A DNA stretch of 29,578 nt from Candidatus Iainarchaeum sp. (GCA_937968065.1 CALBUD010000043.1:1-29578), one strand, 5' to 3'; positions 571-24,573 are shown, numbered from the stretch's first letter. The notes: a model not told the origin generated them from the letters alone. Translations and numbers: made by a program.

Positions 571-1422
571 TTATAAATTATCTAATGGATTTTTAATAAT
601 TTTTAATTTATTTGTGTTTACTTTTGTATATATTTGTGTAGTGTTTAGATTGGAATGTCCTAAAAGTTGTTGTATATACCTTATATTTACATCATTTTCA
701 AGAAGACTTGTTGCAAAAGAGTGTCTTAAAGTGTGTGGAGATACTTTTTTTAAAATACCTGCTCTTTTACTAGCTATTTTTAAAAATTTTTGAACAGTAT
801 CAACAGATAATGGTTTTCCTTGAGAATTACAAAATAAATATTCTGAAATAATACTTTTATTTCTTATTTTTAAATATTCTGTATATTCTTCAACCCATTT
901 TTTTGAGAGAATAATAATTCTATCTTTATTTCCTTTTCCAGAAACAACTTTTCCTGTATATTCATTAAAATCAAGATCATTTATCTTCATTATCATACAT
1001 TCGGATATTCTTACTCCTGTTGAAAATATAAATTGTGTTATTAATTTATTTCTTTTGTTTTTTATATTTTCTAAAAGTAAAATTAATTCTTTAGAAGTTA
1101 GAACAATAGGTATTTTATTTGATTTTTTTGGAAGTTTAATATTTATTTCTAAATCTTTTTTTAAAAAATTTGTATAGAAATGTTTTATTGCAGAAAGTAC
1201 AAGATTCATAGTTGTACTTTCAACTTTTTTTTCTGTTTTTAAAAAAGAAAGATATTCTATAACATCGTCGCTTTTAATAGTTAATAAATCTTTTTTTATA
1301 AATTTATAAAATAAAGAGACATACATAGAGTAAGTTTCTATGGTTTTTAGACTATACCCTTCTATATTTAATTCATTTTTAAATTTATTTATTAATTTGA
1401 TGTTTTCATCTATTTTTTCCAT
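571..1422 (-). CDS. xerA: Tyrosine recombinase XerA/XerC-like
   Basis: 283 aa. Arg box 'TGVRISEC' and C-terminal catalytic box 'HTLRHSFATSLLENDVNIRYIQQLLGHSNLNTTQIYTKV' (HxxR ... H ... Y). N-terminal core-binding region 'GYSLKTIETYSMYV'. Confidence 0.9.
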   Translation of the reverse strand: MEKIDENIKLINKFKNELNIEGYSLKTIETYSMYVSLFYKFIKKDLLTIKSDDVIEYLSFLKTEKKVESTTMNLVLSAIKHFYTNFLKKDLEINIKLPKKSNKIPIVLTSKELILLLENIKNKRNKLITQFIFSTGVRISECMIMKINDLDFNEYTGKVVSGKGNKDRIIILSKKWVEEYTEYLKIRNKSIISEYLFCNSQGKPLSVDTVQKFLKIASKRAGILKKVSPHTLRHSFATSLLENDVNIRYIQQLLGHSNLNTTQIYTKVNTNKLKIIKNPLDNL

Positions 1423-13896: not shown

Positions 13897-14874
13897 TTGA
13901 GTTTAAAATCAGATGCATCTTTTCCATGGACTGAAAAATATAGACCAAAAACATTAGATCAAATAATAGGTCAAAAACATATATTACCAAGACTTAAAAG
14001 TTATGTGGAAAAAAAAAGCATGCCAAATCTTTTGTTTGCGGGCCCTCCAGGGATTGGAAAAACATGTTCGGCCATAGCTCTTGCAAAAGAATTATTTAAA
14101 AATACATTTTCTCAAGACTTTTTAGAGTTAAATGCTTCTGATGAAAGAGGAATTGGGGTTGTAAGAGGAGCTATAAAAGATTTTTCAAGAACCATACCAT
14201 TAGGTGCTGATTTTAAAATAATTTTTTTAGATGAAGCTGATGCCTTAACAAATGACGCTCAACAAGCTTTAAGAAGAACCATGGAAAAATACACTGGAAC
14301 TGTAAGATTTATATTAAATGCAAATTATTCTTCAAAGTTAATTACTCCAATACAGAGTAGATGTTCCTTATTTAAATATAAACCTCTTTTAAAAGAAGAT
14401 ATTAAAGAATATTTATTATTTATTTCAAAACTAGAAAATATAACTATAGATGAAAATGCTATTGATGCTATTTTTGATGTTTGTGAAGGAGATATGAGAA
14501 CAGCTATTAACTATCTTCAGGCAGCATCTTCTATAAGCGATAAGGTAAATCTAGAAAACATATATGCAGTATCTAATTCTGCTAAACCACAAGATATCTA
14601 TAACATGATAGATGCATGTCTTTCTTTAGATTTTTTAAAAGCAAGAAGTTTTATGGAAAAGCTTTTGTTTGAACAAGGCTTGAGTGGAGAAGATATAATA
14701 AACCAAATCTATAAAAAAATAGTAGCATATCCTGATGATAAAATAACTATTGAACAAAAAATAAAAATTATAGATAAAATTGCAGAAATTAATTTTAGAT
14801 TGGTTGAAGGTGCAAACGATAGAATCCAACTTGAAGCTTTACTTGCACAAGTAATATTATTAAATTCAAAATAA
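13897..14874 (+). CDS. rfcS: Replication factor C small subunit
   Basis: 325 aa. 'PWTEKYRPKTLDQIIGQ', Walker A 'GPPGIGKT', 'FLDEADALT', 'SRC' box 'PIQSRCSLF' and 'GDMRTAIN'. TTG start is the only in-frame start upstream of the conserved box, with GTGAT 5 nt upstream. No intein. Confidence 0.92.
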   Translation: MSLKSDASFPWTEKYRPKTLDQIIGQKHILPRLKSYVEKKSMPNLLFAGPPGIGKTCSAIALAKELFKNTFSQDFLELNASDERGIGVVRGAIKDFSRTIPLGADFKIIFLDEADALTNDAQQALRRTMEKYTGTVRFILNANYSSKLITPIQSRCSLFKYKPLLKEDIKEYLLFISKLENITIDENAIDAIFDVCEGDMRTAINYLQAASSISDKVNLENIYAVSNSAKPQDIYNMIDACLSLDFLKARSFMEKLLFEQGLSGEDIINQIYKKIVAYPDDKITIEQKIKIIDKIAEINFRLVEGANDRIQLEALLAQVILLNSK

Positions 14875-14894: not shown

Positions 14895-16679
14895 ATGACA
14901 TCCTATATAGATGATTTAGTTAAAAAATATAATTCTGAAAAAGGAGAAGCTTCCTCTTCTAAAGAAAAAAATGATTTACCTTTAAAAAATGAAATTAAAG
15001 ATTTTTCAAAAGAAGGAGAAAAGAAATCAAGCACAGAAGAAAACAAAAATAAAGATGAAAAACCAAAAGAGATTTCTATAGAAGATCTTTCAAGAGAGGA
15101 TGTTTTTCAAAAACCTGTTGATAAAAAAAATAAAGAAGAAGCTATACAAAAATTAAGATCTTTAGAATCAAACAAAGATATTAAACAAGATGAGCTTGTA
15201 GGAGATAAAAACGAACCTTTTGAAAAACAAGAAGAACATGTAAAAGATGCGGTTTTAGTTACAAAGTATGGAGATGTAAAAATCTATAGATTAAAAAGTC
15301 AATCTCTTCTTCATTATTCAGTTCCAGTTCCAAAACCAAACTCCAGTCAAAAAATAATAATTAATACTTTAAAAGAAGCAGCAACAAGGCTTGTATCTTC
15401 AGATCCTTATAAGATAAGAGACCCTTTACAAAGAAAAAACATTTATTATCAAAAAATAATTGATATTTTAGAAACAGCTAAAGAAATAAACATTCCAAAA
15501 CATATGTTTCCTTTTTATGCAGATGCTGTTGTTAAAGAAATGACAGGTTATGGTATGATTGAACCTTTACTTCAAGATGATAAGCTTGAAGAAGTTATGA
15601 TTGTTGGTTCAAATAAACCTGTGTATGTTTATCATATAGATTATGGTATGATGACAACAAATATAACTTTTTTCTCAGATGACGGAATTTATGAAATTAT
15701 TGATAAAATTGCAAGAGGACTTGGAAAAAACATTGATATCTCAAATCCTCTTTTAGATGCAAGACTTCCAGATGGTTCTCGTGTGAATGCAACTGTTCCT
15801 CCAGCTTCAATTGATGGTTCAACTGTAACTATTAGAAAGTTTAGAGAGGATCCTTACACCATAATTGATCTTATTAATTTTAAAACAACAAACATAGAAG
15901 TTGCTGCCTTTTTATGGTGTGTGGTTGAAGGATTTGGAGCAAAACCAGCAAACATTTTAATATCTGGTGGTACAGGATCTGGAAAAACTACAACTTTAAA
16001 TGTTCTTGCAAACTTTATACCAGAAGCTGACAGAATTCTAACTATTGAAGACACTGCAGAATTAAAACTTCCATTAAAGCATGTTATTAGATTTGAAGGA
16101 AGACCACCTGGTCTTGAAGGAAAAGGAGAATTAAGTTTAGATATTTTAACTAAAAACACATTAAGAATGAGACCTGATAGAATAATTGTAGGTGAAATTA
16201 GACACAAAGAAGCAACCACTCTTTTCACTGCTATGAACACAGGACACGATGGATGTATGGGAACTGTGCACGCAAACTCTGCAAAAGAAACCTTAGTAAG
16301 ATTAACTTCTCCACCAATGGATGTTCCTCCTTTAATGCTTGCAGGAATTGATTTTATAATTATTCAAAAAAGATTAAGAACTGCAAAAGGACAAGTTAGA
16401 AGAATAACTGCAATTGCAGAAGTTGTTGGTGTTTTAGAAGGTGATCCTAAAATCAACATGGTCTTTGCATGGAATCCTGAAACAGATTCTCTTGAAAGAA
16501 CAAAAGAACCTATCTATTATTTTGATGTTATAAAAACTTATACCAATTATAATGACGAGCAAATAAAACAAAAAATAGAATTTAGAGCAAAATTATTAAA
16601 AGAAATGGTTGATAAAAAAATAAGAAGTATTGAAGATGTTGCAGAAGAAGTACAAAAAGAATATATTTTGAAAAGATGA
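14895..16679 (+). CDS. Type IV pilus assembly ATPase (T2SSE/FlaI/PilB/TadA superfamily) with ~115-aa charged N-terminal extension
   Basis: 594 aa. Walker A 'ISGGTGSGKTTTLNVL', Asp box 'ILTIEDTAEL', Walker B 'RPDRIIVGEIR', His box 'GHDGCMGTVHANSA'. GGTGAT SD 6 nt upstream of the ATG. Confidence 0.9.
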   Translation: MTSYIDDLVKKYNSEKGEASSSKEKNDLPLKNEIKDFSKEGEKKSSTEENKNKDEKPKEISIEDLSREDVFQKPVDKKNKEEAIQKLRSLESNKDIKQDELVGDKNEPFEKQEEHVKDAVLVTKYGDVKIYRLKSQSLLHYSVPVPKPNSSQKIIINTLKEAATRLVSSDPYKIRDPLQRKNIYYQKIIDILETAKEINIPKHMFPFYADAVVKEMTGYGMIEPLLQDDKLEEVMIVGSNKPVYVYHIDYGMMTTNITFFSDDGIYEIIDKIARGLGKNIDISNPLLDARLPDGSRVNATVPPASIDGSTVTIRKFREDPYTIIDLINFKTTNIEVAAFLWCVVEGFGAKPANILISGGTGSGKTTTLNVLANFIPEADRILTIEDTAELKLPLKHVIRFEGRPPGLEGKGELSLDILTKNTLRMRPDRIIVGEIRHKEATTLFTAMNTGHDGCMGTVHANSAKETLVRLTSPPMDVPPLMLAGIDFIIIQKRLRTAKGQVRRITAIAEVVGVLEGDPKINMVFAWNPETDSLERTKEPIYYFDVIKTYTNYNDEQIKQKIEFRAKLLKEMVDKKIRSIEDVAEEVQKEYILKR

Positions 16680-16799: not shown

Positions 16800-17942
16800 A
16801 TGGACTCAAAGAAAATAGAACTTTTAAAAAGTGATTTAGATAAATCTAAAAAATCAAAAGACTTAGATATAGATCTTGATGCTGTCCAAAATATTGTTGC
16901 AAAAATGAAAAAGAAAGATAGTAAAATAAGTTCTGAATCTTTGCAAGATAATAATTTAAAAGAACTAAGATCTGCAATATCACAAGGAAGACTTTCACAA
17001 CTAGATGTTAATTCAGCATCAAAGCTTGCAGAAAATCTTGATAGTGATTTAGAAAAATCTGCAGTCAAATATTATTCTCCATTTAAAAGATTTATTGATT
17101 CTATTGTTCTATCTATTTTAAAAAACCCTTTAGGTAAAAAAATATCTTTTCTTTTAACTTCTGCAAACTATAAAAGGACTTTAGTTCAACATCTTGTAAT
17201 TTCTACAATTTTTTCATTAATTCTTGCAACTATTATAACTTTTATGTTATTTTTTATTTTTTTAGCAACAAAACCAGTGTGGCTTATCTCTTTGTTATTT
17301 ATTTGGCCATTTTTATTCTTTATAGGACTTTATTCCTTTTCTTATTTAGTTCCTTTACAAAAAGCAAAGATGCGTGGAATAATGATTGATGTAGAGCTTC
17401 CATTTGCTTTAAGACACATTGCAACTGAACTTCAAGCAGGGATTGGGCTTTATAAAGTTTTACAGTCTGTCGCTGCAAATGACTATGGTGTTCTTTCAGA
17501 AGAGATGAATAGAACTATTCTTGAAATTGAAAATGGAACTGATACAAAAACAGCTTTAAGACATGCTGCTTTAAGAAGTCAATCTAAAAACTATAATGTT
17601 GCATTATTCCACATTGTAAGAACTTTAAACACAGGTGGAAATCTTGCAAACACAATTAACAGTGTTGCAGACTCTGTTGCTTTTGATCTTTTAGAAAATG
17701 CAAAAACCTTTGGAGAAAAAATGAATTTCTTTGGAATTATTTTTATTTTTGTTGCTATTGTACTTCCTGTTTTTGCAGCAATTTTAGGTGCGATTGCAAA
17801 TGCTCCAATAGGACAAGACGGAGCGTTGTTTTTACCAGGAGTTATGACTTCGACAACTCTTGCAATTATTTTCTTAGTTGCTTTACCAATAATATTTATA
17901 TTTTTAATATTTTATATAAAAATGATAGAACCAAAAATGTGA
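16800..17942 (+). CDS. Pilus platform membrane protein, single T2SSF domain (TadB/TadC/EpdJ-K-like), with ~90-aa charged N-terminus
   Basis: 380 aa. T2SSF-like cytoplasmic domain 'LPFALRHIATELQAGIGLYKVLQSVAAN...ENGTDTKTALRHAA...LNTGGNLANTINSVAD' flanked by TM segments. Confidence 0.8.
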   Translation: MDSKKIELLKSDLDKSKKSKDLDIDLDAVQNIVAKMKKKDSKISSESLQDNNLKELRSAISQGRLSQLDVNSASKLAENLDSDLEKSAVKYYSPFKRFIDSIVLSILKNPLGKKISFLLTSANYKRTLVQHLVISTIFSLILATIITFMLFFIFLATKPVWLISLLFIWPFLFFIGLYSFSYLVPLQKAKMRGIMIDVELPFALRHIATELQAGIGLYKVLQSVAANDYGVLSEEMNRTILEIENGTDTKTALRHAALRSQSKNYNVALFHIVRTLNTGGNLANTINSVADSVAFDLLENAKTFGEKMNFFGIIFIFVAIVLPVFAAILGAIANAPIGQDGALFLPGVMTSTTLAIIFLVALPIIFIFLIFYIKMIEPKM

Positions 17943-17945
17943 TAA

Positions 17946-18848
17946 ATGTTGACATCAAAAAGATTAGAAAGATACCAAGTATTTTTATTAGGGTTGAAAA
18001 TAAAAGTTCCTGCTAAAGTATGGATTCTTTTAATTTTCTTTTTAAGTCTGATCTTAGGTGTGTTAGGTTTTTTAATAGATGTAAAGATAGGTATTCTATT
18101 ATTTGTAAATGGTTTAGTTCTAGGTCTTGGACTTCCAATGTATGTTTATTATAAAAAAATAAGAACTATTGAAAGATATTGGCCAGAAGCTTTAAAATTA
18201 ATAGCAGACACCATGAAAGCAGGATCTTCTTTTGATTATGCTTTAAGAGAAGTAACCTCAGCTGACTTTGGTCCAGTTTCTTTTGAGATTAGTGAAGCTA
18301 TAAGAAGACTTGAGATGGGAGATACCATGCATGTTGCATTAAGTTATCTTTCATTAAGAATAGAATCTAAAATTGTAAGAAGAACAGTTACATTAATACA
18401 AGAATCTTTAAGATCAGGTGCACAACTTGCTGATGTTTTAGAAGAAATTGCAAATGATACTAAACAATTATATAGAATTAAAAAAGAAAGACATACAAAA
18501 ACAATGCTTCAAACAATCTTTATTGTTGCAGCAAGTGCTGTTATTGCTCCATTTATTTTTGGAATGACAAGAGTTATAACTGGTTTTTTAACAGATATAG
18601 CAGCAACAACAGGTATTGCAACAGCAGAAGCTCTTGAAGTTTCTTTAGTTACACAAAATAGAATCTTTTTATTCTTAGATATTTATATTGTTATTGAAAT
18701 CTTTGCAGCTTCTGCAATGATTAGTGTTATGAGAGAAGGAGATTTAAGTTTTGTTGTAATTTTCTTCCCTGTGTTAGTTACTTTAGGATATATTATTTAT
18801 TTCTTATCTCAAGTAGTTTTAAATTTAATGCTTTCAGGATTGGTATAA
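17946..18848 (+). CDS. Pilus platform membrane protein, second single-T2SSF-domain paralogue
   Basis: 300 aa. 'WPEALKLIADTMKAGSSFDYALREVTS...GDTMHVALSYLS...LRSGAQLADVLEEIAND' flanked by TM segments. Starts 3 nt after the upstream stop. Confidence 0.8.
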   Translation: MLTSKRLERYQVFLLGLKIKVPAKVWILLIFFLSLILGVLGFLIDVKIGILLFVNGLVLGLGLPMYVYYKKIRTIERYWPEALKLIADTMKAGSSFDYALREVTSADFGPVSFEISEAIRRLEMGDTMHVALSYLSLRIESKIVRRTVTLIQESLRSGAQLADVLEEIANDTKQLYRIKKERHTKTMLQTIFIVAASAVIAPFIFGMTRVITGFLTDIAATTGIATAEALEVSLVTQNRIFLFLDIYIVIEIFAASAMISVMREGDLSFVVIFFPVLVTLGYIIYFLSQVVLNLMLSGLV

Positions 18849-18849
18849 A

Positions 18850-19032
18850 ATGAAATCAAAAATAAAAAGAATATTAAAAGAGAATAAGGGTCAGATTTCT
18901 TTAGAGTTAATTATTATATTAGGTGTAGTTATATTAGTAGCTTTAACTGTTGGTATATATCTTAAACAGACCTCTGCAAAAAACGTTGGAACAAGCATAA
19001 GTTATCAAAGAATTGTAGAGGGAGGAAGTTAG
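18850..19032 (+). CDS. Flp-sized class III signal-peptide prepilin (mature ~46 aa)
   Basis: 60 aa. 'KENKG|QISLELIIILGVVILVALTVGIY' is a basic leader, K-G-Q cleavage motif, Glu at +5 and one hydrophobic helix. No Cys. ATG lies 1 nt after the platform gene stop. Confidence 0.7.
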   Translation: MKSKIKRILKENKGQISLELIIILGVVILVALTVGIYLKQTSAKNVGTSISYQRIVEGGS

Positions 19033-19053
19033 AAACTAGGAAAGCTTTAGTTT
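19033..19053 (+). terminator. Weak hairpin AAACTA-N9-TAGTTT directly after the small pilin stop, followed by a T-rich stretch
   Basis: 6-bp perfect stem (19033-19038 / 19048-19053), extendable by two G-U pairs, then 'gttttctt'. Confidence 0.25.
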
Positions 19054-19106
19054 GTTTTCTTAAAAAGAAAGTTATATAAAGTTATTGCTTTACTAATTAA
19101 TTAATT

Positions 19107-19127
19107 TAACTTATGAAAAATAAGTTA
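19107..19127. repeat. 8-bp inverted repeat TAACTTAT-GAAAA-ATAAGTTA upstream of the candidate major pilin gene
   Basis: Read directly. Centre is ~64 nt upstream of the ATG at 19181. Could be an operator or a 5'-leader stem-loop. Confidence 0.6.
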
Positions 19128-19180
19128 TGCACTTAATGTGTAAAAAAATATTAAAAAAAATATAAAAAGGTGTTTAAAAA

Positions 19181-19705
19181 ATGAATAAAAAAATAAAAGG
19201 ACAAGGTGCGCTTGAATACCTTCTATTAATAGGTGGTGCAGTTTTAATCGCAGTAATTGTTATTGCGTTACTTGTTGGTATGGGTGGTCAATCAAGAGAT
19301 ACTGCTACAGAGCAAGGAGAAAGAGCTCAACAAGCAACAGATATTGCTCAACCAGCTCAAATTACAGGTATTGAATCATTTAGAGATGATTGTGTAGATA
19401 CTCCTGCTAATGCAAAATTTTCATTATCATGGGTTCCTGTTGGTGACGGTGGTGTTTATGAATTAATAATTAAAGATTCTAGAGGTAATATATTAGACGT
19501 AAGTTTAGATGATATGGATACAAATGATTTAGATCCTATAAAAACAGCTAATGTTACTGGTTCTGTTAATATCAATTCAGAAGCAGACGGAAATTCAATT
19601 AGTCCTGCAAATAATTGTGGAGACACATTCACTGCAGTAATTAAAACAACTAAAAACCAACAAACTGTAAATTCTCAATCAAGAATTTTCAGATGGTCAA
19701 ACTAG
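19181..19705 (+). CDS. Class III signal-peptide pilin with acidic beta-rich globular domain; candidate major pilin
   Basis: 174 aa. 'KKIKG|QGALEYLLLIGGAVLIAVIVIALLV'. Two Cys in the globular part ('DDCVD', 'NNCGD'). AGGTG SD 8 nt upstream. Own AT-rich upstream region, and a hairpin plus long oligo-T downstream. Confidence 0.8.
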   Translation: MNKKIKGQGALEYLLLIGGAVLIAVIVIALLVGMGGQSRDTATEQGERAQQATDIAQPAQITGIESFRDDCVDTPANAKFSLSWVPVGDGGVYELIIKDSRGNILDVSLDDMDTNDLDPIKTANVTGSVNINSEADGNSISPANNCGDTFTAVIKTTKNQQTVNSQSRIFRWSN

Positions 19706-19716
19706 AATTATAAATT

Positions 19717-19758
19717 AATATAGATTTTAATTAATCTATATTTTTTTTATTTTTTTTT
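19717..19758 (+). terminator. 10-bp stem hairpin followed by T8-A-T9 after the candidate major pilin gene
   Basis: 19717-19726 (AATATAGATT) pairs with 19733-19742 across a 6-nt loop. Oligo-T runs follow at 19741-19748 and 19750-19758. It starts 12 nt after the TAG stop. Confidence 0.55.
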
Positions 19759-19817
19759 AAAAATTAATTTAAATATTTATAAAAAAAGAAGATAAAATAA
19801 AAAGAAAGTGATATATA

Positions 19818-20249
19818 ATGGATTTTATAAAAAATAAAGGAAAAGGACAAGGTGCCTTAGAATATTTATTAATTATTGGAGCTGCATTAATTGTCGCTGT
19901 TACAGTTATTGTTCTTGTAATTAGTATGAGCGGATCTAGTACAGAACAAGCAGGACAACAAGGTGAAACCTTAAGTACATTAATCGATAATGCATTAAAT
20001 CCTCCTGTTGTAACTTATATTAATGGTTGTGGAGATGGTGCAAAAATACATTTAATTGAAACTGAGACAAATGGTACTTATAAAATTTATAAGGATGGAA
20101 CTGCTGTTGGAGGCATATATACTGCAAGTAATGGAATTATTACTTTAGATTTAGAATCCGCAGAGTCAACAGATAGAATAACAGTTAGTTTAGTAAAAAA
20201 CAACAGAGAATCAAGACCTTCAACACCATCAAGTAGATGTACTCCATAA
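19818..20249 (+). CDS. Class III signal-peptide pilin, paralogue of 19181..19705
   Basis: 143 aa. 'NKGKG|QGALEYLLIIGAALIVAVTVIVLVI'. Two Cys ('NGCGD', 'SRCTP'). 'TYKIYKDGTAVG...ITVSLVKNNRESRPS' resembles FN3-like beta-sandwich patterns. GTGAT 5 nt upstream of the ATG. Confidence 0.8.
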   Translation: MDFIKNKGKGQGALEYLLIIGAALIVAVTVIVLVISMSGSSTEQAGQQGETLSTLIDNALNPPVVTYINGCGDGAKIHLIETETNGTYKIYKDGTAVGGIYTASNGIITLDLESAESTDRITVSLVKNNRESRPSTPSSRCTP

Positions 20250-20277
20250 ATAACATAATTAAAATTACAGAAAACAT

Positions 20278-20472
20278 ATGATTTCCAAAAAATTACAAGA
20301 TATTTTAAATGACCAAAAAGGTCAAGTCTCTTTAGAATATCTTGTGATGATTATCTTTGGAATGATTTTAGTTATAACAACCGGACTTGTTATTCTAAAT
20401 TTAAATAGTTTAGTAACTGTTGCAAAAGCTAAAATATTGACTTACAGGGATAACATTTTATCTTCTTTATAG
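20278..20472 (+). CDS. Flp-sized class III signal-peptide prepilin (second copy)
   Basis: 64 aa. 'NDQKG|QVSLEYLVMIIFGMILVITTGLVIL'. No Cys and a short C-terminal tail. Confidence 0.7.
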   Translation: MISKKLQDILNDQKGQVSLEYLVMIIFGMILVITTGLVILNLNSLVTVAKAKILTYRDNILSSL

Positions 20473-20503
20473 TTTTTTTTAAAATAAAAACTAAATTTTT
20501 TTT
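20473..20503 (+). terminator. Two T8 tracts after the second small pilin gene
   Basis: T8 at 20473-20480 directly after the stop, and T8 at 20496-20503. AT-rich background. Confidence 0.3.
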
Positions 20504-20517
20504 AAAAGGAAACAACT

Positions 20518-21639
20518 ATGTTTAATTTTTCTTTTTTTATATTTTCAATAACTCTTTTATTTTTAATAATTGCAAGTTTTTCAGATTTAAAAAAAAGAAC
20601 CATACCAAACAGTTTAGTTTTTTCTCTTTTAATCTTAGGAGTTATTATGAAGATTATAGAAGCAATTACTTTTTCTGAAATTAATATTTTCTTAAATGCT
20701 TCTTTATCTTTTATAATTACTGTTTTTGTATCTTACATTTTATGGGAAGTTGGTCTTTTTGCAGGTGGAGATTTAAAACTTTTTGCAGCAATCTCTTTTC
20801 TAAATCCTTTCAATCTTAATTTTTTAGGTTTTATTTTTTCTTTTGGAGTTATTAATTGGCCAATCTTTGCATTAACTTTAATAATTGTAAGTATTCTTTC
20901 AACAGCACCATTACTTATCCTTCATTCTTTGTATTATTTTATATTTAAAGGACATCATTTTATTTTATGGGAAATTTTAAAATCAAAGAACAACATTTCT
21001 TCATTTATTAATTCTGTTTTAATTATTTTCTTTATAAGTTCTTTTCTAAATATATTCTCACTAAATATATCTTATTTAATTTACTTTTTATTTTCTATTT
21101 TCTTTTTGTTGTTTTTTAGAAAGATAGAAAAACACAACAAAAACCATTTTTATTATTTAATATCTATTTTCTATGTTTGTTTAATAATATATTCAATTAT
21201 TTGTAAACAAAACCTCTTCTCTTTTTATGATTTTATAACAATTGTAATTATGATAAAACTAATCTTTTTACTTGTTACAATCTATAGAATAATTTCAGAG
21301 AAAATACTTAAAGAAACTAAAAAAATAAAAGATTTAAAAGAAGGAGATGTTGTATATAATAATTATTATAAAATAGGTTATAAAACTATTGAAAAAAACA
21401 TATCTTTTATTAATTATATTAAACAAACTATAAAAAACAACTATTCAAAAAATCTAATTATTGATTCTAGAAAGGTTGGTGGCTTAACTTCTAAAGACAT
21501 AACCTTTTTAAAGAGTTCTTATAAACATAATTTAGAGAAACCAGTAATTTTAAAGAAGACAATTCCATTTACCCCTTCAGTTTTAATAGGGTATCTAATA
21601 TTAAATGTTTTGGGAGATTTTATCTGGATGTTAATTTAA
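20518..21639 (+). CDS. Prepilin peptidase, A24 family GxGD aspartyl protease (EppA/PibD/FlaK-like) with large insertion
   Basis: 373 aa. First catalytic Asp 'FSDLKKRTIPN' (D23), second 'FAGGDLKLFAAI' (D85). C-terminal helix 'IPFTPSVLIGYLI' is typical of the family end. Extra TM segments and a ~85-aa soluble segment lie between them. Confidence 0.85.
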   Translation: MFNFSFFIFSITLLFLIIASFSDLKKRTIPNSLVFSLLILGVIMKIIEAITFSEINIFLNASLSFIITVFVSYILWEVGLFAGGDLKLFAAISFLNPFNLNFLGFIFSFGVINWPIFALTLIIVSILSTAPLLILHSLYYFIFKGHHFILWEILKSKNNISSFINSVLIIFFISSFLNIFSLNISYLIYFLFSIFFLLFFRKIEKHNKNHFYYLISIFYVCLIIYSIICKQNLFSFYDFITIVIMIKLIFLLVTIYRIISEKILKETKKIKDLKEGDVVYNNYYKIGYKTIEKNISFINYIKQTIKNNYSKNLIIDSRKVGGLTSKDITFLKSSYKHNLEKPVILKKTIPFTPSVLIGYLILNVLGDFIWMLI

Positions 21640-21680
21640 ATAAATTTTATAAAAAAGGAAGAAAGAGAGTGTGTTTATAA

Positions 21681-22160
21681 ATGAAAAATAAAAAAGGCCA
21701 AATTGCTATTGAATATATTATTTTTATATCTGTTTTATTATTATTTTTTCAAGCAATAGTATATCCTAATATAAATTTTTCAGAAAATGTGATTACTGAT
21801 ATTTATAATGCGACCCAGACAAAACAATCTATTGAAAAATTAGCAGAAGGCATTTCTTCTTTTTCTAGTTCTTCAGGATATGGTACTCGTTCAGTTTATT
21901 TCTATCTCCCAAATAATGGGGAATTTAAAGGTTGTGTGCAAGGAGGGGGAGTTACAAACCTTTCTTATTCTGTACAATTATCTCAACAAAATCCAAAACC
22001 AAGTTATATTTCTTCATGTGATGTAAATGCTCTTTGTAATTTTAAAAGAAAAATTTATATTGGCAAGGCCAATATTACTTGTACTGCTGTAGGCCCTGGT
22101 TTTAATGGTTATTTAAAAATTACAAAAGAAGAAGATGGTGATATAATTGTTGAACCATAA
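21681..22160 (+). CDS. Class III signal-peptide minor pilin-like protein
   Basis: 159 aa. 'KNKKG|QIAIEYIIFISVLLLFF'. Four Cys and four N-x-S/T sequons (NFS, NAT, NLS, NIT). Confidence 0.7.
   Translation: MKNKKGQIAIEYIIFISVLLLFFQAIVYPNINFSENVITDIYNATQTKQSIEKLAEGISSFSSSSGYGTRSVYFYLPNNGEFKGCVQGGGVTNLSYSVQLSQQNPKPSYISSCDVNALCNFKRKIYIGKANITCTAVGPGFNGYLKITKEEDGDIIVEP
22137..22142 (+). promoter_or_regulatory. Internal Shine-Dalgarno-like GGTGAT inside the 3' end of the upstream pilin gene, serving the TTG-initiated overlapping pilin gene
   Basis: GGTGAT read directly. TTG codons at 22147 and 22150. Confidence 0.5.
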
Positions 22161-22512
22161 AGCTCAAACAAGCATAGAGTTTTTAATGGTAATTTTATTT
22201 TTAATTCTTATAGCTATAACTGTTAGTGTTTTTTTAACTTCAACTTTTGATATTAGTGTTTCTGTTTATAAAACTAAAAACAGAACTTTAGAATATATTT
22301 CTTTATATCAAGATCCTTTGTATATTCAAAGCATAACTTATAATTATAATAATACTAATCTTGATATGTTTGTTTCTTTAAATAAAACACCAAATAACCT
22401 TTGTCCTGATCAAAACTATTTTGAGGAAAAATATAACTATGGATCTTTAAAAGATTATTTACAAACAAACACTAAATTTGACACAGTTACAATAACATTA
22501 TATTGTAACTAA
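22147..22512 (+). CDS. Class III signal-peptide minor pilin-like protein (TTG start, overlaps upstream gene)
   Basis: 121 aa. 'LNHKA|QTSIEFLMVILFLILIAITV'. Two Cys and three sequons. The first in-frame ATG would delete the signal motif. GGTGAT at 22137-22142 lies 4-7 nt upstream of tandem TTG codons (22147, 22150). Confidence 0.6.
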   Translation: MLNHKAQTSIEFLMVILFLILIAITVSVFLTSTFDISVSVYKTKNRTLEYISLYQDPLYIQSITYNYNNTNLDMFVSLNKTPNNLCPDQNYFEEKYNYGSLKDYLQTNTKFDTVTITLYCN

Positions 22513-22526
22513 AAGGAAAAATAATT

Positions 22527-23024
22527 ATGGATAAAAATTTATTATATTTACAAATCTTGTTTATGTTTGCAGTAATTGTAAACATATTTGTACAAAACAA
22601 ATTATTTTTAAATATATTGTTGGTGTTGCTTGTCTTTTTATTCTTTTTTAAAGAAGTGGATAATTATGTTTATAATAGAAATAAATATATGTATGTTGGA
22701 ATAGGTTTTTCTACAATTTTAGTTTTATTTATCTTAACTGAATATATAACTCACATATATTTCTTAGTATTTTTTATGTGTGGTGTTGTGTTATATCTTT
22801 ATCTTTATAAAGTTTTATTTAACACAAGTTATGGAACTGTTATAAAAAGTACAACTACAAGCATAACATTTAAAATTGAAGATTCTTTTTTTAAATCAAA
22901 AAAAGAACATACTTTAAAATATTCAAAAAAAGTTCCAATAGGGTCTACTGTCTTAGTTGAATTATCAAAATCAATTGTTTCTAAAAAACCCATAAAGGTT
23001 AAAAAAATAATTCCTAAACCATGA
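22527..23024 (+). CDS. Membrane protein (3-4 TM) with ~65-aa K-rich beta-type C-terminal domain, function unknown
   Basis: 165 aa. Hydrophobic N-terminal two-thirds, then 'YGTVIKSTTTSITFKIED...VPIGSTVLVELSK'. Starts 14 nt after the last pilin-like gene. Its stop overlaps the next start (ATGA). Confidence 0.55.
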   Translation: MDKNLLYLQILFMFAVIVNIFVQNKLFLNILLVLLVFLFFFKEVDNYVYNRNKYMYVGIGFSTILVLFILTEYITHIYFLVFFMCGVVLYLYLYKVLFNTSYGTVIKSTTTSITFKIEDSFFKSKKEHTLKYSKKVPIGSTVLVELSKSIVSKKPIKVKKIIPKP

Positions 23025-23389
23025 CTTTTAAATCTTTAAATATTTATTTAATAATTCTTACAGTTACTTCTCTTTTTATTTTATTTTTATATACTTTTTT
23101 TTATACTCCTTTAGAAATATCTTTGCTTGAAAACAACACTCTTCATTTAGAAAAAGTTGTTTCTGTTTCTGGAAATTTAAAAAACTTAGAGTTAAAAGAA
23201 AATAATTTATTTTTAGAGGCGTGCAACTATTCAAAATGTCTAAAAGCAGTTTATTTTAACATTTCTAAAAATAATCATGAATTACTAAATAACGCTTATC
23301 TTTATAATAAGCAAGTTAAGTTAACTGGTAAATACACTCTATATAATAAAAAAGAAGAAATTATAATTTATAAATTTGAGGTTAAATGA
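23021..23389 (+). CDS. Single-pass membrane-anchored protein with OB-fold-like ectodomain, function unknown
   Basis: 122 aa. N-terminal TM 'IYLIILTVTSLFILFLYTFF'. 'VVSVSGNLKNLELKENNLFLEACNYSKCLKAVYF...KQVKLTGKYTLYNKKEEIIIYKFEV' has the strand pattern of small OB-fold domains. CxxxxC pair. ATGA overlaps at both ends. Confidence 0.5.
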   Translation: MTFKSLNIYLIILTVTSLFILFLYTFFYTPLEISLLENNTLHLEKVVSVSGNLKNLELKENNLFLEACNYSKCLKAVYFNISKNNHELLNNAYLYNKQVKLTGKYTLYNKKEEIIIYKFEVK

Positions 23390-24573
23390 TATTTGATATT
23401 ATCTTAGGTTGTTTTTTAGGTTTTATTTTTGGTTTAATTCCCTCTCTTCACATTAATTTTATATCTTATCTATTCTTATATTTTGGATTATTTTTAGTTT
23501 TTCCAGATAAGTTTTATTTTTTCTTAAGTCTTTCAATCTCTCAATTAATAACAAGTTATCTTCCTCAGACTTTTTTCTCAGTTCCAAATGTTGAAAATAT
23601 AATGAATCTATTTCCTCTGCAAAGATTATTTTTAAAAGGAGAGGCTTTAAAAGCAATTTTTATAACTTTTGTAGGTTCTTTTTTTGGAGCTATCTTTGCA
23701 ATACTTTTACTTCCATTTCTTTATCTTCTTTTTTCTTCTCTAATAGGCTTTCATTTTTTTATTTCTTTTGCTATTCTTTTTGTACTTTTAAGTTTTGTTT
23801 ATTATCAAGAAAATCTAAAAGAAAGAATTATTGTTATTTTTATAATTCTCTCTTCTGGCCTTTTAGGTATTTTAACTTTAAAATACAATGTTTTTTTAAA
23901 AGAGTCTTTATTTGTGTGTGTTGTAGGATTATTTACTCTTCCTTTGTTATTTAAATCTATATTTGAAAAACAAACAAGAGTTTTTCAAAAAATAAATTTA
24001 AAAGAAATAAAATTAAATTTAAAAAAATCAATGATTTTTTCGTTTATGGGTTCTTTAGCATCAATGTTTATTATTCTAGTACCTTCTTTTTCATCCTCAC
24101 AAGCAGGAACCATGGTTTCAAGAATTAAAAGAAATCTTTCTTCTGAAGAATATATTTTATTATTTTCTAGTATATCCATAAGTGCTTTAATATTTTCCTA
24201 TTTTCTTGCTATGTTTTTTTATAAGCCAAGGCTAGGTTATTTTGCAATATTATTACTTGAAAAACAAATAATTCCAAGAACAGAGATTTTCTTTTTTATA
24301 ATAACTGTTCTTTTATCTGTTTGTTTAATTTTATTTATATTAAAATCAATAATCAAAGATATAATTGTTTTTATAAACAAACAAAATCTTACAAAAATAA
24401 ATGTATTTATCTTAATTTTTTCAATAGTTTTAGTTTTTTTAATATCTGGTATAAAGGCCTTACCAATTTTATTTTTAAGTGCTGTAATTGGGTATCTTCC
24501 TCTGCACTATAAAAAATCAAGAGTGATTTTAATGGCATACATTATGATTCCAACTCTTTTATTTTACCTATAA
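23386..24573 (+). CDS. Polytopic membrane protein (~10-11 TM), possibly TctA/DUF112-like
   Basis: 395 aa. N-terminus 'ILGCFLGFIFGLIPSLH' weakly resembles the TctA-family G-x-x-PG start. Otherwise no motif. Family assignment is tentative. Confidence 0.5.
   Translation: MIFDIILGCFLGFIFGLIPSLHINFISYLFLYFGLFLVFPDKFYFFLSLSISQLITSYLPQTFFSVPNVENIMNLFPLQRLFLKGEALKAIFITFVGSFFGAIFAILLLPFLYLLFSSLIGFHFFISFAILFVLLSFVYYQENLKERIIVIFIILSSGLLGILTLKYNVFLKESLFVCVVGLFTLPLLFKSIFEKQTRVFQKINLKEIKLNLKKSMIFSFMGSLASMFIILVPSFSSSQAGTMVSRIKRNLSSEEYILLFSSISISALIFSYFLAMFFYKPRLGYFAILLLEKQIIPRTEIFFFIITVLLSVCLILFILKSIIKDIIVFINKQNLTKINVFILIFSIVLVFLISGIKALPILFLSAVIGYLPLHYKKSRVILMAYIMIPTLLFYL

Follow-up and report, generated by a model that had tools for sequence, protein, structure and literature searches.

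A probable Epd-like type IV pilus operon in an Iainarchaeota genome, and its candidate major pilin with a frozen stalk and a variable head

When an archaeal pilus locus encodes pilins of two very different sizes, which of them builds the fibre? The question is raised by a 29,578-nucleotide (nt) stretch of DNA from Candidatus (Ca.) Iainarchaeum sp. (GCA_937968065.1 CALBUD010000043.1:1-29578; the whole stretch is hereafter called the window), in which positions 18850–22512 carry six prepilin genes that we call A, B1, B2, C, D and E. A sequence-only reading of this region had noted two Flp-sized pilins among larger, domain-bearing ones, and had asked which subunit makes the filament and whether the small ones prime or cap it. 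The two size classes recur beyond this locus and are a known hallmark of Epd pili. We conclude that the six genes very probably make up the pilin set of a complete archaeal type IV pilus operon of the EppA-dependent kind (Epd-like, clade 1 or System 1). On sequence grounds, the headed 174-amino-acid (aa) pilin B1 appears to be the best candidate for the major pilin; this choice, which runs against the Flp and EpdE analogy, we favour with slightly better than even confidence. The whole account, in which an Epd-like pilin set has B1 as its shaft and the other pilins prime or cap it, is the best joint explanation that we can offer, and we consider it fairly probable.

All six genes lie on the plus strand, at the positions first given for them. 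Pilin A (18850–19032) has 60 aa, 46 of them in the mature form, and the cleavage site KENKG↓QISLE. It is followed by B1 (19181–19705; 174 aa; KKIKG↓QGALE), B2 (19818–20249; 143 aa; NKGKG↓QGALE) and C (20278–20472; 64 aa, 49 mature; NDQKG↓QVSLE), so that A and C do bracket the two larger genes. Further on are D (21681–22160; 159 aa; KNKKG↓QIAIE) and E (22147–22512; 121 aa from a TTG start; LNHKA↓QTSIE). Each site conforms to the common motif [K]-[G/A]↓Q-x-[S/A]-[L/I]-E and is followed by a hydrophobic helix; a relaxed-pattern six-frame scan of the window found no further motif site with a hydrophobic helix behind it. The glutamate at position +5 is followed by tyrosine in B1, B2, C and D, by leucine in A and by phenylalanine in E. 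The size classes are also as described: beyond mature residue 25, B1 has 142 residues, B2 108, D 128 and E 90. Five of the six pilins match Pfam PF04021 (class III signal peptide), and three of these score above the gathering threshold. An NCBIfam scan of the pilins gave a single match, TIGR04205 for A, below threshold.

Could the two small open reading frames (ORFs) be chance hydrophobic frames rather than genes? They are only 60 and 64 aa long, and AT-rich DNA is rich in spurious ORFs. Against this, the window has six matches to the strict motif [KR][GA]Q.[SA][LI]E[YFL] where 300 dinucleotide-preserving shuffles have none, A lies above the PF04021 cutoff (32.1 bits), and orthologues occupy the same positions in 13 genomes with motif and length kept. 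The related worry of the sequence-only reading, that the resemblance might be a chance similarity of hydrophobic helices, is excluded: all six pilins have orthologues, with order and motif retained, in up to 12 relatives. Conservation thus refutes the idea of chance frames, to which we give practically no credence.

The genes around the pilins identify the system. Upstream, on the same strand, lie a pilus assembly ATPase of the T2SSE/VirB11-CpaF type (14895–16679; 594 aa; Pfam T2SSE, E=1e-48) and two platform genes, one TadC-like (16800–17942; 380 aa; E=1e-15) and one TadB/C-like (17946–18848; 300 aa; E=3e-15), each with a single stretch of Pfam T2SSF (PF00482). Pilin A begins 1 nt past the stop of the second platform gene, as had been claimed. 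Between C and D, also on the plus strand, is a long-form prepilin peptidase (20518–21639; 373 aa; Pfam Peptidase_A24 and Arc_PepC). It has about nine hydrophobic, transmembrane (TM)-like segments, and the catalytic pair Asp23 and Asp85 (the latter in GGD) is invariant in 12 orthologues. The earlier description of Flp-sized and domain-bearing prepilins beside platform genes and around a prepilin peptidase is therefore supported. The locus has the traits that mark an Epd-like system, namely two contiguous platform genes with one T2SSF domain each, a long-form 9-TM A24 peptidase within the locus, and headless pilins of 55–75 aa (A and C) among the substrates. Pfam scans found no second ATPase, platform or peptidase gene in the window. 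The NCBIfam EppA model NF053826 aligns with residues 8–364 of the peptidase (profile positions 5–330 of 334; E=7e-13), better than FlaK does, at 48.6 bits against an equivalog cutoff of 450, and we therefore call the enzyme EppA-like only.

By the established biology of A24 peptidases and type IV pilus families, we would expect the following sequence of events. The six prepilins would enter the membrane; the co-encoded 9-TM aspartic peptidase, through Asp23 and Asp85, would trim the short basic leader after [K]-[G/A] and so expose Gln+1 and Glu+5; and the ATPase and the split TadC-type platform would assemble the mature pilins into a surface filament. What is seen is the gene content, the motifs and the catalytic residues, together with the conservation patterns and predicted folds given below; from these we infer the processing, the composition of the filament and the roles of the single pilins.

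Because the ATPase has an identity of 77–78% to its counterparts in Ca. Forterrea multitransposorum and Ca. Iainarchaeum metagenome-assembled genomes, DnaK is 93% identical, and the entire 20 kb is syntenic, we place the host, as judged by these comparisons, in the Iainarchaeota/Diapherotrites (DPANN), near Ca. Forterrea. Thirteen Iainarchaeota genomes agree in their pilin sizes and in a gene order that runs ATPase, TadC1, TadC2, A, B(n), C, EppA, D, E. More distant loci of the same layout occur in Micrarchaeota, Hadarchaeota, Hydrothermarchaeota and Thermococcus (ATPase 47–55% identical); for Thermococcus, Hadarchaeota and Hydrothermarchaeota the figure is 47–50%.

The best-studied system of this kind is the Epd pilus of Methanococcus maripaludis, which has an ATPase (EpdL), two platforms (EpdJ and EpdK) and pilins with the cleavage sites KGQI, KGQV, KGQL and RAQI (PMC4371748 Table 1). 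Cleavage by EppA requires Gln+1 (PMC4390842). The major pilin EpdE has 74 aa; a short pilin, EpdD, is an essential minor subunit, and the minor pilins EpdA–C have 130–156 aa, sizes whose Flp-like character the authors themselves remarked on (PMC3875500). EpdA–D are needed for normal piliation. Makarova et al. characterized their clade 1 by a 9-TM EppA (arCOG02300, the long form, with 375 aa in Thermococcus, for example), a pair of TadC genes, five or more minor pilins and major pilins some 70 aa long (PMC4858521). According to Denise et al., split single-domain platforms and short major pilins are common to the Epd-like and Tad systems, and Tad derives from an Epd-like archaeal system (PMC6668835). 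System 1, with two platform genes and a great variety of pilins, has also been catalogued in DPANN by means of MacSyFinder models and is of the same class as the locus in the window (bioRxiv 10.64898/2026.04.22.720090).

Against this background the locus is an ordinary Epd-like archaeal type IV pilus. Its motif, peptidase, split platform and two pilin sizes were already established in M. maripaludis: the two systems share a short basic leader that ends in K/R-G/A and is followed by Gln+1 and Glu+5, a dedicated 9-TM A24 peptidase whose gene lies among those of the pilins, two single-T2SSF platforms with one ATPase, and headless pilins of about 60–75 aa mixed with pilins of about 120–160 aa. They also differ. 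Here the genes form one compact operon, whereas M. maripaludis spreads them over at least four loci; the window has no large DUF2341 adhesins, FleN/MinD or FlaH-like ATPase; Tyr+6 is present in four of the six pilins but in none of the M. maripaludis pilins; the peptidase is distant from the curated EppA model; and the most conserved pilin lineage, the major-looking B1, is headed, whereas EpdE is headless. New here are the gene order conserved in 13 genomes, the frozen B1 stalk with its strain-variable head, and the headless counterparts of B1 in relatives. The survey passages found by term search do not describe the A-B1-B2-C-EppA-D-E order, a B1 with invariant stalk and variable head, or its headless counterparts (bioRxiv 10.64898/2026.04.22.720090).

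The bacterial Tad/Flp (type IVc) system is the other obvious relative. It too has a split TadB/TadC-type platform, a CpaF/TadA-like ATPase, headless Flp-sized pilins and larger pilin-like proteins alongside them. The Tad processing motif is G↓xxxxEY, with Glu+5 and Tyr+6, and B1, B2, C and D have a site of this type. However, Flp_Fap (PF04964) is absent from A and C even at E≤10, its one sub-threshold match being in a Thermococcus-type relative (E=0.077), and the TadE-like Pfam models match neither D nor E. The peptidase is of the long EppA type rather than the short TadV type, and the host is a single-membrane archaeon. Pfam families for TadE/TadF pseudopilins, the secretin RcpA, TadZ, TadD and TadG were found on no ORF of the window. 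A bacterial Tad system is thereby ruled out, given the PF04021 class III signals, the 9-TM Arc_PepC peptidase, and the lack of Flp_Fap or TadE-like matches and of a secretin or TadZ. The term 'TadE/F-like minor pilins' of the sequence-only reading has to be given up for D and E except as an analogy.

How general are these pilin features? We scanned 80 ATPase-anchored loci for class III signals; anchoring on the ATPase avoids a bias towards particular pilin sequences. The 237 pilins so collected have Gln at +1 in 231 cases, Lys or Arg at −2 in 225, Glu at +5 in 227 and Tyr at +6 in 149. The lengths of the 231 Gln+1 pilins fall into two modes, 50–80 and 110–190 aa. Since both M. maripaludis and these 80 loci show the two sizes, the size classes are not specific to this locus. 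In the 13 Iainarchaeota genomes the pilins fall, judged by sequence, into six orthologous positions. Copies of the B type number two to four per locus; A and C are always single. B1 has 24 of its 25 stalk columns invariant; the count falls to 13 in C, 7 in D, 6 in both A and B2, and 3 in E.

The case for B1 begins with this stalk. Mature residues 1–28 of B1 (QGALEYLLLIGGAVLIAVIVIALLVGMG) are identical across the 13 genomes (14 of 15 genes). Synonymous variants are present at each of the first 25 codons, where nucleotide identity averages 83% and falls to a minimum of 71%. Because the protein is invariant while every one of these codons varies synonymously, the frozen stalk suggests purifying selection rather than recent transfer. 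The head behaves in the opposite way. Two genomes whose DNA is 94–97% identical over 8.7 kb fall to 53–68% identity only in the head of B1; this divergence island is sharply bounded and coincides with the head-coding part of the gene (14320–14756 of locus L001 compared with L019, Ca. Forterrea). For the same pair, protein identity is 96% for A, 100% for C and 90% for B2, but 62% for the B1 head. Such an island suggests allelic replacement or diversifying selection. Across the loci, the same B1 stalk carries heads from four or more families that have no detectable similarity to one another.

Distant relatives have a pilin with the N-terminus of B1 (QGALEYLLLIGGAVLIA) that is only 51–66 aa long. 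Its gene is flanked by those of A-like and C-like small pilins and is often present in several copies. This is the headless form expected for an Epd/Flp-type major pilin. The headed B1 may have arisen from such a headless pilin by gain of a domain. We also observed that some relatives encode extra B-type pilins in which a near-identical QGALEYLLLIGG stalk bears a much larger head, of 198–494 aa; certain of these genes lie outside the operon and on the opposite strand (L022, 198–6090, minus strand; L014, 1265–2749, minus strand; L017, 14772–15650).

The predicted fold of B1 is that of a pilin. In an AlphaFold2 model built with 106 homologues, the N-terminal helix runs for 44 residues and the head is a beta-sandwich (predicted local distance difference test (pLDDT) score 88.6), and a pair of cysteines, Cys71 and Cys146, is conserved in the head. 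Foldseek found no match for the model in the PDB at E≤0.001, and PDB sequence searches with pilin A and with a B1 profile gave nothing meaningful. The only whole-length structural resemblances are to haloarchaeal type IV pilins, and these are weak (E of about 0.007–0.04, TM-score 0.3–0.4): the Natrinema and Haloferax structures 8gi2, 9myg and 8fj5 likewise have a helix and an immunoglobulin-like head. Haloferax volcanii offers a further parallel in its paralogous pilins PilA1–6, which share a near-invariant hydrophobic N-terminal domain (H-domain), differ in their heads and can each be the major pilin (PMC4371748). The haloarchaeal pilins nevertheless belong to another clade of type IV pili; they are processed by PibD, lack Gln+1/Glu+5, use a single two-domain platform and have no sequence homology to B1 beyond the helix.

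Heads of this kind also invite a different explanation, that B1 and B2 are surface proteins anchored by a class III signal and helix, like the substrates of the Sulfolobus bindosome, and not filament subunits at all. Non-pilin substrates of archaea do carry class III signals (PMC4858521), and the heads, as generic beta-sandwiches, gave no significant match in the PDB. Yet the continuous 44-residue helix topped by a small head is the 'lollipop' architecture of a pilin, Glu+5 and the invariant core helix suggest helix–helix packing in a polymer, and in every relative B1 and B2 sit between the pilins of an assembly operon. We regard anchored surface proteins as very improbable.

B1 also appears to have expression signals of its own. 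About 100 nt upstream of the gene, at 19062–19080 on the plus strand, a purine-rich element resembling the B recognition element (AAAAGAAAG) precedes a TATA box (TTATATAAA); this promoter-like pair is conserved in the upstream alignments of related loci and would act as a promoter. A Shine–Dalgarno (SD) sequence, GGTG (19169–19172, plus strand), stands 8 nt before the start codon, and a strong SD (AAAGGTG or GGAGG) precedes B1 in all 13 loci. Downstream, at 19718–19758 on the same strand, is a terminator-like hairpin (ATATAGATT/AATCTATAT) with two T-runs (free energy, dG, −8.2 in the window). A perfect hairpin with a tail of 8–9 T follows B1 in about 10 of the 13 loci, its stem differing in sequence, and a ViennaRNA scan of related loci found no comparable hairpin after B2 or C. 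Downstream hairpins were scanned with ViennaRNA; a terminator scan that demands at least three G-C pairs misses AT-rich hairpins at 25% GC. A sigma-70 promoter scan gave 59 sites against 56 expected, for a consensus that is irrelevant to an archaeon, and Rfam and tRNA scans of the window found nothing.

Between the TATA-like box of B1 and its SD, at 19124–19142, is a small palindrome or hairpin, GTTAT(G/A)CACTT(A/T)A(T/A)GTGT(A/G). The window shares it with its four closest relatives, although the flanks vary, and it could regulate the candidate major pilin as an operator or as an RNA hairpin.

Does separate transcription of B1 mean that one machinery makes two filaments according to conditions, the first thin and headless (A and/or C), the second thicker and headed (B1 and B2)? 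B1 does seem to be transcribed apart from the operon that carries A. H. volcanii builds pili from alternative major pilins (PMC4371748), and passages of a 2026 survey propose two types of System 1 pilus from pilin diversity (bioRxiv 10.64898/2026.04.22.720090). On the other side, the window has no second set of ATPase, platform and peptidase, A and C never expand in copies, and C is conserved over its full length, like a component that interacts with the machinery. With no direct argument in its favour, we think the two-filament explanation improbable.

The strongest competitor to B1 comes from the headless pilins themselves. Pilin A has orthologues of 57–72 aa in 13 of 13 genomes, always in single copy, with a variable tail; the upstream alignments show no promoter of its own. 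Pilin C, with orthologues of 59–66 aa, is likewise single copy and follows B2 by 10–73 nt with a weak SD. Its mean identity over the 13 genomes is 73–77% in stalk and tail alike, the AKAKILTYRDNIL tail included. To us both look like minor pilins, conserved and kept in single copy. They might instead build the fibre, as EpdE and Flp do, with B1 and B2 as adhesive accessories that are sparse or at the tip. An adhesive role would explain the variable heads of B1 and B2, and A and C are present throughout the relatives. The cleavage site of A is KGQI, as in EpdE (PMC4371748); in M. maripaludis it is the short EpdE that is major and EpdA–C, of 130–156 aa, that are minor (PMC3875500); and the major pilins of Epd-like and Tad systems are typically short (PMC6668835). 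What speaks against a headless shaft here is, first, that A lacks its own promoter, 1 nt past a platform gene, and that C trails B2 with its weak SD. Second, both genes are strictly single copy, and their stalks have only 6 (A) and 13 (C) invariant columns out of 25, against 24 for B1. Third, among the headless pilins of distant relatives, the one that shares the stalk that is most conserved and occurs in several copies is a member of the B family and not of A or C. A shaft of A or C is unlikely on this evidence, though it deserves more weight than the other alternatives.

We thus prefer B1 as the candidate shaft subunit because it combines a frozen stalk, a variable head, expansion in copies, its own signals, headless counterparts and a pilin fold. 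The invariant 28-residue N-terminus would then lie in the core of the filament, with the strain-variable beta-sandwich head exposed. B2 would be a paralogous second shaft pilin or an accessory pilin, and A, C, D and E, by analogy with EpdA–D, would probably be single-copy, low-abundance pilins that prime or cap assembly. A more specific idea, put forward tentatively and rated somewhat below an even chance, is that a major pilin that is normally headless in the Epd/Tad class has here become modular, with a frozen 28-residue stalk and interchangeable strain-specific heads, and with A and C as obligatory minor subunits. That the heads turn over by recombination or diversifying selection, while the two headless pilins prime or cap, we hold with the same reserve.

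Several points weigh against B1 as the shaft and against the system as we have described it. The only experimentally studied Epd pilus has the headless 74-aa EpdE as its major subunit, from which A or C would be expected here, and Tad fibres are built from Flp. The B1 stalk could owe its invariance to some conserved interaction that is not packing in the core. Promoter and terminator are recognized at the level of consensus, in DNA of 25% GC where AT-rich motifs are common. Codon usage is of little help: B1 has the highest fraction of glycine codons that are GGT (0.75) and slightly more C-ending codons, in a sample too small to weigh. Finally, the peptidase scores far below the NF053826 cutoff and is at most a putative orthologue of EppA.

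The remaining pilins fit around B1. B2 (PF04021, 24.7 bits) is 38% identical to B1 over its first 98 residues and has a conserved head family of its own in 14 loci; in the stalk it is a paralogue of B1. The AlphaFold2 model of D has a 61-residue helix and a beta-sheet head (pLDDT 89), and four cysteines are invariant. Its head family is found in 23 loci, distant ones among them, and a Foldseek search of the PDB gave no significant match, none reaching E≤0.001. A likeness of D to minor pseudopilins of the type II secretion system was a weak Foldseek resemblance and was not used. E has orthologues of 112–121 aa, abutting or overlapping D, in 11 loci. On these data D is a candidate for a conserved minor pilin and E for a fast-evolving one. 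The TTG codon of E lies inside the 3′ end of D, giving an overlap of 14 nt (22147–22160). Because overlaps of 14 to 20 nt or short gaps of 2–15 nt recur in relatives, translational coupling of D and E is suggested. The exact E protein with the TTG start is absent from the public protein collection, and annotators have therefore probably chosen another start or overlooked the gene.

Downstream of E are three packed genes for membrane proteins of 165 aa, 122 aa and 395 aa, the last TctA/DUF112-like (22527–24573, plus strand; successive 4-nt overlaps; Pfam TctA). In every close relative the three come after E, and several distant loci have the TctA-like gene behind D or E. They may be accessory components of the pilus; their membership is uncertain. 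On the other side, the gene for the replication factor C (RFC) small subunit (13897–14874) ends 20 nt before the ATPase gene. It adjoins the ATPase in all close relatives and is within a few kb of it in several distant loci, an unexpected conserved neighbour whose connection with pili, if any, is not obvious. Elsewhere the window (about 25% GC) encodes archaeal housekeeping functions: besides RFC, these are CDC48, Lrp/AsnC, topoisomerase, ribonucleotide reductase and GrpE-DnaK-DnaJ. Near the start of the contig there is also a tyrosine recombinase (571–1422, minus strand; 283 aa; Phage_integrase with a SAM-like N-terminal domain), likely a XerA-type chromosomal enzyme rather than one from a mobile element.

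What does this mean for the archaea concerned? A compact set of five pilin families (A, B, C, D and E) in a single operon is conserved in many uncultured DPANN genomes. Within it the B family alternates between headless and headed forms on an identical stalk, which makes the relation between Flp-like and 'lollipop' pilins testable; the same switch makes testable the identity of the shaft in filaments of the Epd/Tad class. The hypervariable head of B1 is a candidate determinant of attachment or host specificity in ultra-small archaea whose lifestyle is predicted to be symbiotic. If B1 is indeed modular, its variable head could set the specificity of such a DPANN archaeon for its host or for a surface.

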